Of a DNA stretch of 64,000 nt, positions 11,901 to 16,038 are shown piece after piece. A model generated the notes under the pieces. The model was not told the DNA's origin, ran no database searches, and saw nothing but the letters and a program-made list of their open reading frames with translations. This DNA is from a virus. Taxonomy: Duplodnaviria > Heunggongvirae > Uroviricota > Caudoviricetes. The first letter of the stretch is position 1; each line of letters begins with the position of its first letter. The position numbers and the translations under genes were made by a program. The stretch is from the IMG/VR virus record IMGVR_UViG_2713896905_000004, positions 1-64,000 of that record; one strand, 5' to 3'.

Positions 11901-12347
11901 GCCAGTGGGCGTGCCGTATTGTCTCAGGAACAGGATGGCATCAAGTCGCACACCCACAGTGCCAGCGCATCAAATACTGACCTCGGTACTAAAACGACCA
12001 GCTCATTTGATTACGGGACAAAAACGGTCAGCACGTTTAACCACGGTACAAAAACGACAAACAATACAGGAGCGCATACGCATACTGTCGGTGGTCGTTA
12101 CGGTGGTGACTCCATCGGGGGTAAACAACGCGTACAGGTATCAGGAACCAACCAGGTGTCAAGCTCTGCCGGAGCACATGCCCATACTGTCGATATTGGT
12201 CAGCATAACCACACCGTAGGTATTGGTGCCCATGCGCACACTGTGGCATTGGGTGCGCACGGACATACCATCACGGTTAACGCTACTGGTAATGCGGAAA
12301 ACACCGTAAAAAACATTGCATATAACTATATTGTGAGGCTTGCATGA
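8916..12347 (+). CDS. S: tail fibre protein (P1 S / P2 gpH / lambda Stf family, ~1143 aa from ATG 8916)
   Basis: Central segment '[25 protein letters not shown]...[13 protein letters not shown]...[39 protein letters not shown]' is the conserved fibre shaft shared with P2 H; duplicated PTAP-GTN repeats; C-terminal His-rich GAHAHTV repeats like T4 gp37 tips. Confidence 0.9.
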
Positions 12348-13213
12348 TTAAGTTAATTCTTTCAGCGCCAGTACATGAAATGGCTGAAGCATTTAAGCGG
12401 GTATTCGCAAATGCAGATAATGTGGATGTTGTAGAAAAAACATTTGAAGCAATCCCGGAATTTGACTGCATGGTCAGTGCGGCAAACAGTTTCGGGCTAA
12501 TGGATGGCGGCGTTGACGCTGCCATTACTGCATTCTTTGGTACTCAGTTACAGACACGTGTTCAGAATCATATTCTTCGTGAATATCTTGGTGAGCAGCC
12601 TGTAGGCACTGCATTTGTTATTGAAACGGGGGATAACAACCATCCCTGGCTGGTACATGCGCCAACAATGCGCGTTCCGCTGACCATTGACGGAACAGAC
12701 GCTGTATATAACGCCACGTGGGCTGCTTTACTTGCCATCTTTCAGCACAATAAAAATGCAACGACAGACAGGAAAATAAAGACGGTGGTATTCCCTGCAA
12801 TGGGGGCCGGATGTGGTCAGGTGCCGTTTGAAAGTGTTGCCCGGCAGATGAAGCAGGCATGGGATAACTTTAATAAAAAAACAGAAGCAATTAACTGGGA
12901 ATACGCACACTCCCGCCAGTTGGCAGTATTTAATACATGCGCGTACTGCCCGGGTACTCCTGTTTGTCGTTATGCGGATATTAAATATATTGGACTTGGC
13001 GATTACCGGACGTATTGCTTACGGTCGGGGCAGGTATGCATTAATCCTGAACATCAGGTTGATGACGTGCTGACTAATAATCGTTCTCGCCCGGGGGCGC
13101 ATATGCATCAGATTAATCCGGTAAAATCCGTAGGTAATATTGCCATTGGCGCACACAGCCACGGAAGGAATATCACCATTGGTGCTCATTCCCATACCCC
13201 ACATAAACAATAA
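12344..13213 (+). CDS. macro-domain (ADP-ribose-binding/hydrolase-like) protein with tail-fibre-tip-like His-repeat C-terminus (289 aa)
   Basis: Motifs '[18 protein letters not shown]', '[21 protein letters not shown]', '[14 protein letters not shown]' fit the macro-domain pattern; C-terminus '[26 protein letters not shown]'; ATG overlaps S stop. Confidence 0.7.
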
Positions 13214-13237
13214 TTCTTTCTCTGATTAGAGGTGAAA

Positions 13238-13816
13238 ATGACTTTCAGAATGAGTGCTGAAGCACAAACCATTCGCGTATTTAATTATCTCGATGGTACA
13301 AATGAATTTATTGGAGAAAGTGATGCCTATATTCCACCACATACAGGGCTTCCGGCAAACAGCACAGATATTGCTCCTCCTAAGATTCCAGCTGGTTTTG
13401 CCGCTATATTCGACACAACCCGAAACTTATGGAATTTAATAGAGGACCATAGAGGAAAAACTGTTTATCACACTGAAACAGGTGACGCTAAAACTATATT
13501 TAAATTAGGCGCTTTGCCTGAGGATGTTACGTGCATTCCTCCTGATGATGAGTATCAGAAGTGGAATGGAAATCAATGGGTTACAGACGATGAGGCGAAG
13601 CATCAAGCTCAGATAACCTATGCAAACTCAAAGAAAAATGAGTTGTTAAAGCACGCAAGCGTAGAGATGGCGATCTTACAAGATGCTGTTGATTTATGTA
13701 TTGCAACAGATGAAGAGAAAGTTTTATTAAATGAATGGAAAAAATACAGAGTGCTTGTAAATAGGTTAAATGAAGATGACATCATTCAAATGAAAGTCCC
13801 TGAAATACCAGTTTGA
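13238..13816 (+). CDS. U: tail fibre assembly protein (Tfa/U family)
   Basis: Typical Tfa sequence pattern ('...IRVFNY..DGT.EFIGESDAYIPPHTGLPANSTDIAPP...'); GAGGTG RBS; follows fibre gene. Confidence 0.85.
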   Translation: MTFRMSAEAQTIRVFNYLDGTNEFIGESDAYIPPHTGLPANSTDIAPPKIPAGFAAIFDTTRNLWNLIEDHRGKTVYHTETGDAKTIFKLGALPEDVTCIPPDDEYQKWNGNQWVTDDEAKHQAQITYANSKKNELLKHASVEMAILQDAVDLCIATDEEKVLLNEWKKYRVLVNRLNEDDIIQMKVPEIPV

Positions 13817-13831
13817 TTTATATATTAATAA

Positions 13832-13870
13832 GCCACTGTTGACAGGACTGTTTTACAGTGGCTTGTTTTA
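13832..13870. terminator. bidirectional rho-independent terminator (GCCACTGT...ACAGTGGC + T-run)
   Basis: Inverted repeat 13832-13839/13855-13862 followed by TTGTTTTATT, between convergent tfa and glycosyltransferase genes. Confidence 0.55.
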
Positions 13871-15019
13871 TTATCCAAACCAATTTTCTAGAACATTTTC
13901 AAATTTATGGGTAACTTGCCACCATAAATAGTTCTCTAATACATATTTCTTTCCGTTATTTGCAATTTGTTCTAATTTTTCGGAGTGTAATGTTTCATAT
14001 ATATCACTAGCTAAACTTTCTGGCAACATTGGTTCATTTATATGAAATCCTGTATGGTTATTTTTTACAAATTCAACCATTCCACCTCGAGTGCTAACTA
14101 AAACGGGTTTTCCTGCCCCCATAGCTTCTATAGCAACCATGCAGAACGGTTCTTGAAACTGAGATGGGATTACAACTAGATCGGCTATAGGATAGTAACG
14201 GTACATATCATCTGGTTTTACCCCGCCAACAAGATGACAACGCGAACCAATAGTTCCAGCAAGTTCCCTTACTTGTTTTTGATATGCAGCTTTTTCTCCT
14301 TTATCTTTATTATTGTAGTCACCAACAACTACAAGTTCTATATTGTCACATGATTTTATCAATTTTTTAAACGCTTGTAATAGTAAAACAGTCCCTTTTT
14401 CAGGGGAGATCCTTCCCGCATAAAAGATAACTTTTTTCTCAGAGGGAATACCTAAATCTTGTTTTGTTAGCGGGGGTAGCCCTTTATCTAGATTGTGTGG
14501 TTCTGTACCATTAGGAACTATACAAATTTCAGCGTCAGGAAGATGTTTTTCATAAAAATCCTTTAAATACTGACTTGGAACAAGCATTTTCACATTGCTA
14601 TCTAGCCCTTTCGGTGTAAAGGCATTATGCATATGCATTATCATTTTTGCGTCAGGAGCTTTCTCTCTAATTTGACGATAAAGTTTCATGCTGTTATGAA
14701 CAATAATAATGCTATCGTTTGTGATATTGAAATCTTTAGCAATGTTTAACACTCGTTGTGAATATGGAATAGGATCTATTCTGCTCCATTTTTGAAATAT
14801 CCGTTTATAAAGACGGCTAAACCCTATTCTATGGATAGAGCATCGCTCATTAACAATATCTTTTTCTGAGAAACCATCCTCTCGAATGCATGCTATACGA
14901 TTTGGTATTCTTGTTCTCTTTGCGACTTGATATATCCAAGTTTCAACAGCTGCTGCGCCACGAGGTGGTATTGAAAATATTGGTGTAACTGTAAATATTA
15001 ATTTGTCAATCATGAGCAA
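13871..15019 (-). CDS. glycosyltransferase, GT-B fold family 4 (GT1/GT4-type), 382 aa
   Basis: C-terminal GT4 signature 'FYAGRISPEKG...' and 'EPFCMVAIEAMGAGKPVLVSTRGGMVEFV'; strongly AT-rich relative to flanks. Confidence 0.85.
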   Translation of the reverse strand: MLMIDKLIFTVTPIFSIPPRGAAAVETWIYQVAKRTRIPNRIACIREDGFSEKDIVNERCSIHRIGFSRLYKRIFQKWSRIDPIPYSQRVLNIAKDFNITNDSIIIVHNSMKLYRQIREKAPDAKMIMHMHNAFTPKGLDSNVKMLVPSQYLKDFYEKHLPDAEICIVPNGTEPHNLDKGLPPLTKQDLGIPSEKKVIFYAGRISPEKGTVLLLQAFKKLIKSCDNIELVVVGDYNNKDKGEKAAYQKQVRELAGTIGSRCHLVGGVKPDDMYRYYPIADLVVIPSQFQEPFCMVAIEAMGAGKPVLVSTRGGMVEFVKNNHTGFHINEPMLPESLASDIYETLHSEKLEQIANNGKKYVLENYLWWQVTHKFENVLENWFG

Positions 15020-15557
15020 CTATCCTCTTATAATCTTTTTCCTTTAAATGTTTTTTTAGGGTTGCGGGAGAGCCCGCATACATTGTATTAGCAGGAACAT
15101 CAGTATTTACAACGCTATTTGCAGCTATAACACTATTGTCTCCTATTTTTACACCTGGTAGCACAGTTGTATTTGCCCCAATCCAAACATTACGGCCTAT
15201 TTTTATTGGAGCGCAAATTGTTTCTTTGGGACGTTTGCTTGGTGTTAGTGGATGCGTGACAGTTGTTAATACAACGTTGGGGCCAATGGCAGAGTTACAT
15301 CCAATATCTATTGTTTTTGCATCGAGAAAAACACAATTTGCGTTAATGAAGACCTTTTTATCAATAATTATATTGCCATTCTCAAAATAAAATGGAGCTG
15401 TTATTGTTGAGTCTTCACTTACTTTAACTCCTGTTTTTTTTAATGTGATTAATTTTTTTCTTTTTGAGATCAAGGTATAATTAAATATATGTCTTGCTTT
15501 CTTTGCTTTCTTTTTTTGAAAAATTATATAGAAATAATATGTTAGCAAATCAAACAT
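15006..15557 (-). CDS. hexapeptide-repeat (LbH) O-acetyltransferase, maltose/galactoside O-acetyltransferase-like
   Basis: Left-handed beta-helix repeats 'IGPNVVLTTVTHP...IKIGRNVWIGANTTVLPGVKIGDNSVIAANSVV'; overlaps GT start; AT-rich. N-terminal boundary uncertain. Confidence 0.8.
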   Translation of the reverse strand: MFDLLTYYFYIIFQKKKAKKARHIFNYTLISKRKKLITLKKTGVKVSEDSTITAPFYFENGNIIIDKKVFINANCVFLDAKTIDIGCNSAIGPNVVLTTVTHPLTPSKRPKETICAPIKIGRNVWIGANTTVLPGVKIGDNSVIAANSVVNTDVPANTMYAGSPATLKKHLKEKDYKRIVAHD

Positions 15558-15581
15558 TGTTGTTTTACTTCCATTTAAAAT

Positions 15582-15911
15582 TTAACTATCAAATGTGGCT
15601 CCTATTTCTCGCATTTTGTTAAGTATGATGTTTATTTCATTGCTACCGAGAGAAGTTTGGGCAGCTATGAAAAAAAGTATGTGCAATGACATAGATCTGT
15701 TATTTTCTTTGTTTATATATTTTCTCCACTGGCTATCGCTGCTGACCCCGGCTAGTTCTGCCATTTGATTCCCTGTATACCCAAGCGTTTCTTTGAATTG
15801 ACGCAAATCTTGTGATTTGGGGGGGGTGTAGTTGTTTATTAACCTCATATTAAACCCATTATTGGTAAGCTTTCGTTGGTGTAATGGTAGCACCAATGGG
15901 GCTGCTGTCAA
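15582..15911 (-). CDS. small XRE-like helix-turn-helix protein (start possibly at internal Met, ~15848)
   Basis: 'LRQFKETLGYTGNQMAELAGVSSDSQWRKYI' resembles an XRE-family HTH; first gene of the AT-rich minus-strand cassette. Confidence 0.45.
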   Translation of the reverse strand: MTAAPLVLPLHQRKLTNNGFNMRLINNYTPPKSQDLRQFKETLGYTGNQMAELAGVSSDSQWRKYINKENNRSMSLHILFFIAAQTSLGSNEINIILNKMREIGATFDS

Positions 15912-16038
15912 GCGTCTTTTCTTTATAAATATAGGGAGCCATCAAAATCTGACATCAATTATCTATCGAAATATTTTGAATGACTGGTGAGAAGTTACTT
16001 TGCATACCATTACCTCCTGACAACGTAGGAGGGAACTT

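Follow-up and report, generated by a model that had tools for sequence, protein, structure and literature searches.

The tail-fibre switch of phages P1 and P7 is an invertible C segment whose recombinase, Cin, belongs to the Din family of serine invertases, together with Gin of Mu, Pin of e14, Min of p15B and Hin. A switch of this family comprises a serine invertase, two inverted cix sites, two fibre C-termini with their chaperones, and a recombinational enhancer. In P1 (NC_005856, whose annotation is our reference), the order between R and lydA is S (whose two parts, Sc and Sv, meet at cixR), U, U′, Sv′, cixL, cin and lydC; U′ and Sv′ are inverted, and the enhancer lies inside cin. Here we describe the corresponding locus in positions 1 to 64,000 of the IMG/VR virus record IMGVR_UViG_2713896905_000004 (the window, meaning this whole 64-kb stretch). 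The window belongs to a P1-family phage-plasmid closest to plasmids of Escherichia albertii. Its Cin/C-segment switch is absent and has been replaced, very probably through recombination with other phages.

Variation in this part of P1-like genomes has been documented before. Among 54 P1-like phage-plasmids, ‘region 3 (lydC, cin, Sv′, U′, U, S)’ is one of eight highly variable regions (Wang et al., 2022, PMC9603915). RD-3 has been described as a low-G+C recombination hot spot (Venturini et al., 2019, PMC6906374), and P1-like plasmids with impaired or lost switches have been reported (PMC6906374). The two fibre forms of P1 differ in their receptors: P1(S) binds the outer core of lipopolysaccharide (LPS), and S′ binds O-antigen (PMC13172314; bioRxiv 10.1101/2022.07.24.501295). 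The arrangement described below is a further example of the published pattern at a known hypervariable locus, and near-identical annotated copies exist in public plasmids.

Absence of the Cin switch and limits of the replaced DNA

Positions 9000–20000 of the window match P1, P7 and P1-like phages at ~95% identity by megablast, over just half of the query. The flanks of the unmatched part are collinear with P1 in blastn alignments: 6001–10453 forms a single ungapped block at 94.4% identity, followed to the right by 15979–19729 at 97.4% and 19735–21677 at 96.4%. P1 genes recognised in the window are R, Sc, lydA/B, hdf, darA, ddrA, darB and ref. The window covers about two thirds of an element of ~100 kb, aligning to ~67 kb of the 102-kb relative p2RM9973; repA and parAB of the relatives belong to the part beyond its coverage. 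The features that define the locus are as follows.

8470–8904, plus strand: R, P1 tail-fibre attachment/assembly gene, 99.3% amino acid identity to P1 R
8916–12347, plus strand: chimeric tail fibre, uninterrupted open reading frame (ORF) of 1143 amino acids, matching P1 S residues 1–518 at 92.7%
10267–10286, plus strand: orphan cixR, a Cin crossover site, 20 of 20 positions identical to P1 cixR, crossover point 10276/10277
10277–10453, plus strand: what is left of the terminal inverted repeat of the C segment (the stretch shared by Sv and Sv′), 177 bp, P1 homology ending at the left junction
10454–15978, no strand assigned: replacement block, 5,525 bp, standing in for 5,059 bp of P1
15979–16038, plus strand: right junction, P1 homology resuming at 15979
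from 16039, plus strand: lydA

An earlier note on this DNA had proposed that the inversion switch was replaced here, canonical P1 carrying a cin-invertible C segment at this position. The P1 annotation bears out that premise, and the searches bear out the proposal. With P1 Cin and a Tn3 resolvase as tblastn queries, no serine recombinase was found in the 64 kb (best score 21.6 bits at E ≤ 50), and P1 Cin itself gave no match there at E ≤ 0.1. The part of the P1 locus holding the enhancer and cin (8545–9513) has no blastn counterpart in the window. A second cix site is likewise absent from the 64 kb, within five mismatches of either cixR or cixL. When the window's own proteins were compared with it by tblastn, no second copy of the distal fibre or of tfa, the tail-fibre assembly chaperone gene, appeared on either strand; the extra matches of the distal fibre were a short Sv-common repeat within the fibre gene and, weakly, the tail of the macro-domain ORF described below (35% identity, E 0.006). 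Inverted repeats in 8000–17000 do not exceed 23 nt at 83%. P1 Sv and Sv′, compared in frame, match the fibre just through their shared N-terminal ~150–240 residues and not at their receptor-binding ends, and P1 U′ has no match to the window's tfa. The window holds no serine invertase, no inverted pair of cix sites, no pair of fibre C-termini with chaperones and no enhancer.

The earlier note placed the start of the locus at the macro-domain ORF. Replacement begins 1.9 kb further upstream, at 10454, inside the fibre gene. The P1 sequence missing from the window amounts to 5,059 bp (4455–9513 of the P1 locus), for which short diverged fibre-repeat matches are the sole counterparts there. Lost in this way are U, U′, Sv′, cixL, lydC, cin together with its internal enhancer, and the greater part of Sv. 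At the left junction, homology to P1 decays within a conserved fibre motif, IN(G/D)V.FDGS. The search for cix-like repeats, which turned up no inverted pair, did reveal one perfect cixR that the earlier note had overlooked; it lies inside the fibre gene, with no partner site in the 64 kb. From its crossover point P1 homology runs on for 177 bp, and 10266–10453 also matches the Sv′ arm of P1 at 88% (blastn). Since the breakpoint lies 177 bp past the cix crossover, the loss did not come about by Cin-mediated deletion.

At the other end, the right junction falls 13 bp upstream of the late promoter LPdar (15992–16010), which stands ahead of lydA and is identical to that of P1 at 19 of 19 positions. 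The late promoter LPs, upstream of R (about 8421–8439), is also conserved, with one spacer base differing from P1. Reading frames are intact across both junctions. With LPs and LPdar intact, the two late operons are expected to be transcribed as usual; a scan of 12200–16200 found no terminators that would mark the end of the late S operon. In sum, P1 and P7 share with the window the backbone, the R-Sc/lydA position, an identical cixR and the first 177 bp of the C-segment repeat. In contrast to them, the window is without cin, the cin-borne enhancer, cixL, U, U′, Sv′ and lydC, and carries a different fibre tip, so that inversion is impossible.

Contents of the replacement block

The earlier note had read the gene order as a fibre followed by a macro-domain ORF, a single tfa and then foreign genes. 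This order holds, and it ends in a low-GC trio next to lydA.

12344–13213, plus strand: macro-domain ORF, 289 amino acids (Pfam Macro, 2.2e-19; PHROG 2613, 1.3e-136)
13238–13816, plus strand: tfa, the single tail-fibre assembly chaperone (Pfam Caudo_TAP, 9.5e-32; PHROG 105), its start codon taken from the annotation of relatives
13871–15013, minus strand: glycosyltransferase of family GT4, WaaK type (LPS outer-core N-acetylglucosaminyltransferase family; NCBIfam NF012028)
15006–15557, minus strand: hexapeptide-repeat O-acetyltransferase, Maa/LacA/WbbJ-like (Pfam Hexapep; NCBIfam matches partial and all below their cut-offs)
15582–15848, minus strand: small XRE-like ORF, 88 amino acids from ATG (PHROG 20491, 8.9e-25; weak Pfam HTH_31 match)

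Five parts make up the chimeric fibre: P1 Sc, residues 1–64 of the Sv-common sequence, a lambdoid Stf shaft, a second Sv-common-like copy, and a tip resembling that of T4 gp37. Its Pfam matches are Phage_fiber_2, Gp34_trimer and Collar. The shaft (~0.9 kb, 10524–11440) is 94–95% identical to the side tail fibres of phages ev099, 2H10 and mEp332, and the Gp34_trimer match, at fibre residues 699–797, overlaps the 3′ end of this segment. The second Sv-common copy corresponds to residues 31–153, at 76% identity. We observed that the two copies of Sv-common lie in direct orientation, at 10278–10469 (87.5% amino acid identity to P1) and 11346–11714 (75.6%), on either side of the lambdoid shaft insert, an arrangement that resembles the footprint of successive fibre recombinations.

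The last 203 residues of the fibre can be aligned with the crystallised T4 gp37 tip from one end to the other (PDB 2XGF, chain residues 29–242, E 7e-78), and the alignment takes in the HxH motifs and the terminal NYIVRLA. With Pfam Collar and Caudo_TAP both above their gathering scores, the locus has a gp37-type tip and a Tfa chaperone. It resembles lambda Stf/Tfa and T4 gp37/gp38 in having a collar-needle-head tip with HxH motifs and a chaperone of the Caudo_TAP family. It differs from both systems in that the tip is grafted onto the proximal part of P1 Sc, and in the extra macro gene between fibre and chaperone. This chaperone is related to P1 U through its C-terminal domain alone, with 35% identity over residues 63–164.

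The macro-domain protein is a clear member of its Pfam family (PF01661; 70 bits against a gathering score of 22) and contains the ADP-ribose-binding motif N-x6-GG[VLI]D; residues 48–58 are invariant in 16 homologues. It reaches the cut-off of none of the NCBIfam equivalogs, and PHROG 2613 is a family of unknown function. The protein family comprises 2258 homologous clusters, mostly from enterobacterial prophages, in which the gene lies almost always between a fibre gene and tfa. In the window its start overlaps the fibre stop codon (ATGA). Beyond the macro domain, the C-terminal extension has invariant cysteines at positions 202 and 225, with C208 and C232 present in at least 90% of the 16 sequences; the tail that follows the cysteines consists of a variable number of GAHxH repeats and resembles the fibre needle (35% identity, E 0.002). 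The ATGA overlap, the conserved position between fibre and tfa and the needle-like tail together tie the protein, as far as its sequence tells, to the fibre operon. An AlphaFold2 model built from the 16-sequence alignment was too poor for a fold search, with a mean predicted local distance difference test score (pLDDT) of 58 and values below 50 in the C-terminal tail. Compared alone with PDB sequences, this tail gave a chance-level match at best (E 0.46), and a literature search on macro domains in tail-fibre loci returned nothing relevant.

The convergent genes on the minus strand stand out by their composition, at 29–38% GC (glycosyltransferase 32–38%, acetyltransferase 29%) against 46–53% for the backbone. 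The glycosyltransferase matches NF012028 over its full length, with 657.9 bits against a cut-off of 618 (residues 3–381 of 382, profile positions 1–379 of 380), and is ~67% identical in nucleotide sequence to the same-named chromosomal gene in 1865 E. coli chromosomes. It also matches Pfam PF20706, ‘GT4 in conflict systems’, at 48.8 bits, the match to Glycos_transf_1 being far stronger. The XRE-like ORF, annotated in one relative as an XRE family regulator, is preceded by a sigma-70-like promoter (15911–15884) predicted by consensus only, with 10 of 12 consensus positions matched. None of the macro, glycosyltransferase, acetyltransferase and XRE-like proteins matches a PADLOC defence family. 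The family assignments suggest that the glycosyltransferase and acetyltransferase would be expressed in the lysogen and alter its LPS (lysogenic conversion); plausibly, such a putative change may shift the adsorption of this phage or of competing phages.

A G8 tract at 15819–15826 in the XRE-like ORF was considered as a source of phase variation and rejected, since all three relatives examined have G8 as well. In the relatives, the Prokaryotic Genome Annotation Pipeline annotates here a 60-residue ORF alone, downstream of this tract.

Relatives of the locus and probable mobility of the module

The best plasmid matches to 10400–16100 are five P1-like plasmids of E. albertii, with 98.6% nucleotide identity and full coverage. 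Plasmids of E. fergusonii and E. coli follow, covering 80% of the locus at ~96%, and altogether at least 80% of it is present in 13 plasmids and nine E. coli genomes; none of the complete E. coli genomes carries it above 96%. The locus aligns in one collinear piece in four independently assembled E. albertii plasmids, the fifth is split by an ISKpn26 insertion only, and its orientation is the same in five of five. The source is probably an E. albertii phage-plasmid that the plasmid and genome sets compared here do not contain. A 30-mer spanning the right junction had no match in GTDB representative genomes, and exact look-up of the fibre protein led only to Logan contigs of up to 45 kb, in which the gene order is the same.

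Two complete circular plasmids among these relatives bear on the part of the element that the window leaves unseen. In pEA16-1_1 (NZ_CP117651.1, 99,447 bp), no serine recombinase was detected at E ≤ 1, and the plasmid has one cix site and single copies of fibre tip, macro gene and tfa. The sole Cin-like match in p2RM9973 (NZ_CP043272.1, 102,351 bp) is a Tn3-family resolvase with 33.5% identity, adjoining a Tn3 transposase in an insertion that is absent from the window; this plasmid too has one cix site. A second site is missing from both plasmids within four mismatches. Since these complete relatives, at 97–99% identity, are without cin, we infer that cin is also absent from the unseen third, and the check named in the earlier note, for a cin homologue elsewhere in the element, found no cin in either. 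Together with three more E. albertii plasmids, p2RM9973 and pEA16-1_1 share the architecture of 10400–16100 with the window, the macro protein being 100% and Tfa 99.5% identical. Elsewhere p2RM9973 differs from the window, with a Tn3/fimbrial insertion where the window has darB.

More distant P1-like elements show other versions of the locus. In Escherichia phage JL22 (ON018986.2), a substitution described by Wang et al. (2022, PMC9603915), the Sv-U arm is replaced, as in the window, by an stf-type tip, tfa and an acetyltransferase (sacF), and cixR is kept. Unlike the window, JL22 retains cixL, cin, lydC and the Sv′-U′ arm, and neither a macro ORF nor a glycosyltransferase is annotated there; presumably it can still invert, and it looks like an intermediate state. 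The plasmid of E. coli FDAARGOS_497 (NZ_CP033848.1) is a second cin-less design: like the window it has R, fibre, macro gene and tfa, followed by a convergent acetyltransferase abutting lydA. However, its identity to the window is ~85% over 28% of the block, and its cargo is a serine acetyltransferase only, with neither a WaaK-type glycosyltransferase nor an XRE-like gene. Among PLSDB records, ~560 plasmids match R-Sc, ~245 carry cin at 90% or more nucleotide identity and 67 more at 80–90%, so that roughly half of P1-like plasmids are without P1-type cin, as judged from counts of R-Sc and cin that were not intersected record by record.

In E. coli plasmids with this locus type, exemplified by pEC17CM13_2 (3092–5722), the fibre survives as partial pseudogenes and the macro gene carries a frameshift, with the glycosyltransferase and acetyltransferase genes intact; these carriers look like decaying phages that retain the two genes as a moron. 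Fibre and macro genes are both intact in the window and in the plasmids of E. albertii.

Parts of the block also occur in unrelated backgrounds. The stf-macro-tfa stretch is found at ~89% identity in lambdoid prophages of E. coli chromosomes, and the segment from the fibre end through the macro gene to the start of tfa is 91% identical in the P2-like phage Chuche. A further match lies in pEA32_4 of E. albertii (NZ_CP117604.1), a 49.5-kb phage-plasmid with P2-type baseplate and tail genes, which shares with the window a contiguous block of fibre tip, macro gene, tfa, glycosyltransferase and acetyltransferase (11533–15557 of the window, 7943–11943 there; 85% over 4,044 bp). The backbones of the two are unrelated, and in pEA32_4 the block is followed by repA, not lydA, and is without the XRE-like gene. 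Because 11533–15557 is collinear in this unrelated phage-plasmid, the sequence comparison indicates that the cargo was probably acquired with the fibre tip, as one mobile module, and not dropped into an emptied site. The earlier note had seen the former switch locus as a site for cargo; foreign low-GC genes do stand beside lydA, but they probably arrived with the fibre tip. As an observation apart, the collinearity suggests that the fibre and an LPS-modifying moron move together.

Several further features stand out in the rest of the window. The ddrB ORF (19693–21381) has lost 433 codons in frame by a deletion at 19729/19735, leaving 562 residues against 995 in P1, and the 562-residue form is also found in a related Logan contig. 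In place of P1 isaB/IS1, positions 21711–24294 carry three minus-strand ORFs. The product of 23593–24294 contains a domain resembling Tad2 (Thoeris anti-defence 2; Pfam, 2.7e-21), and no Pfam family matches the remaining two ORFs, of 364 and 262 residues. On the plus strand, 28796–35563 is a full-length ORF of darB size (2255 residues), at the position where p2RM9973 has the Tn3 transposon with a fimbrial operon.

Origin of the arrangement and its meaning

Exchange of fibre coding sequence by recombination is a classic route of fibre mosaicism. We consider it highly likely that this P1-family phage-plasmid had a Cin-driven invertible C segment and that recombination with other phages replaced it. 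The left crossover lies within fibre coding sequence and left a functionless cixR behind; the right junction falls just upstream of the lydA late promoter, so that Sv, U, U′, Sv′, cixL, cin and lydC are gone. What came in encodes a single distal fibre, a translationally coupled macro protein and the cognate Tfa, all placed in the late S operon, together with the convergent low-GC unit of WaaK-type glycosyltransferase, O-acetyltransferase and XRE-like gene, the last behind a sigma-70-like promoter of its own. Having a single cix site and neither an invertase nor an alternative cassette, the phage would form virions of one gp37-like fibre type, and host range would be fixed, not bet-hedged. The fixed fibre specificity put forward in the earlier note agrees with the single intact fibre, the single chaperone and the collinear locus of the E. 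albertii plasmids. Some points weigh against this account. That the switch was lost, as opposed to never gained, is deduced from the retained cixR and the remnant of the C-segment repeat; the absence of cin from the unseen third is known through relatives and not through the window's own sequence; a host-encoded invertase of Pin or Cin type may act in trans, though without a partner site; and the LPS-conversion role is read from membership of sequence families only.

The retained site and repeat could also be viewed in the opposite direction, with this lineage as an ancestral one that was never invertible, P1 and P7 gaining cin and a second cassette later, and the cix-like sequence being simply conserved fibre coding sequence. 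The site does lie within a coding block of 94% identity, in which conservation needs no selection on it, and cin-less configurations are common, as the separately made PLSDB counts above indicate. However, the 177 bp past the crossover match both arms of the C-segment inverted repeat of P1, lydC (the flanking gene of cin in P1) is missing together with cin, JL22, which has cin and the two cix sites, provides an intermediate, and clear donors of the replacement DNA exist among lambdoid and P2-like phages; an ancestral state is accordingly unlikely. Smaller still is the chance that the switch merely lies outside the window, with an invertase and an alternative cassette in the unseen third or a Pin-type invertase acting in trans from a host prophage. 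The window does align to ~67 kb only of the 102 kb of p2RM9973, and its cixR is intact. Yet the two complete circular relatives have no Cin-type gene, a single cix and a single fibre tip and tfa, a second cix within five mismatches is missing from the 64 kb, and one orientation is seen in all five E. albertii assemblies, which makes such a hidden switch very improbable.

Misassembly is known to occur at invertible segments with inverted repeats of 0.6 kb, and real C-segment repeats could in principle have been collapsed or mis-joined in the window. As the same junctions recur in 13 complete plasmids, each assembled independently, in nine genomes of E. coli and in separate Logan contigs, with intact reading frames across both, an artefact is scarcely conceivable. 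A different doubt concerns the cargo, which might serve in phage defence or counter-defence, for instance by glycosylating nucleic acid or a defence signal, and not in LPS conversion. The PF20706 match and the neighbouring macro domain, a handler of ADP-ribose, would suit this idea. It is set against a full-length match above cut-off to an LPS N-acetylglucosaminyltransferase family (658 against 618 bits), a Glycos_transf_1 match far above that to the conflict family, nearest non-phage relatives that are chromosomal genes annotated as LPS N-acetylglucosaminyltransferase, and the lack of any PADLOC match among the macro, glycosyltransferase, acetyltransferase and XRE-like proteins. We therefore give a defence role a low probability.

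Replacement by recombination remains the account we favour, and to it we add a speculation that we hold to be rather unlikely. Fibre tip, macro gene, tfa, glycosyltransferase and acetyltransferase might form a self-contained ‘adsorption plus receptor conversion’ supermodule that passes between unrelated phage-plasmids. The two enzymes would modify the LPS bound by the co-transferred tip, so that lysogens would stop adsorbing their own and kindred virions, in place of bet-hedging by Cin; the macro protein, whose HxH tail is fibre-like, would be a fibre-associated accessory. Our literature search found no paper that describes an orphan cixR or a module of this composition, and a large preprint survey of phage-plasmids does not discuss this locus.

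Current understanding of the locus, already described as hypervariable, is unchanged by these results. P1 is a workhorse for transduction and for bringing DNA into enterobacteria, with a host range defined by its two-fibre switch. In nature, many P1-like phage-plasmids, including this lineage, have swapped that switch for a single imported fibre. Recognising the swap helps to predict the host range of P1-like elements, which also spread resistance genes, and the natural points of fusion to Sc are ready-made for fibre engineering. Finally, that a fibre tip is linked to LPS-modifying genes in phages that are not related provides a modest, testable hint of receptor conversion.

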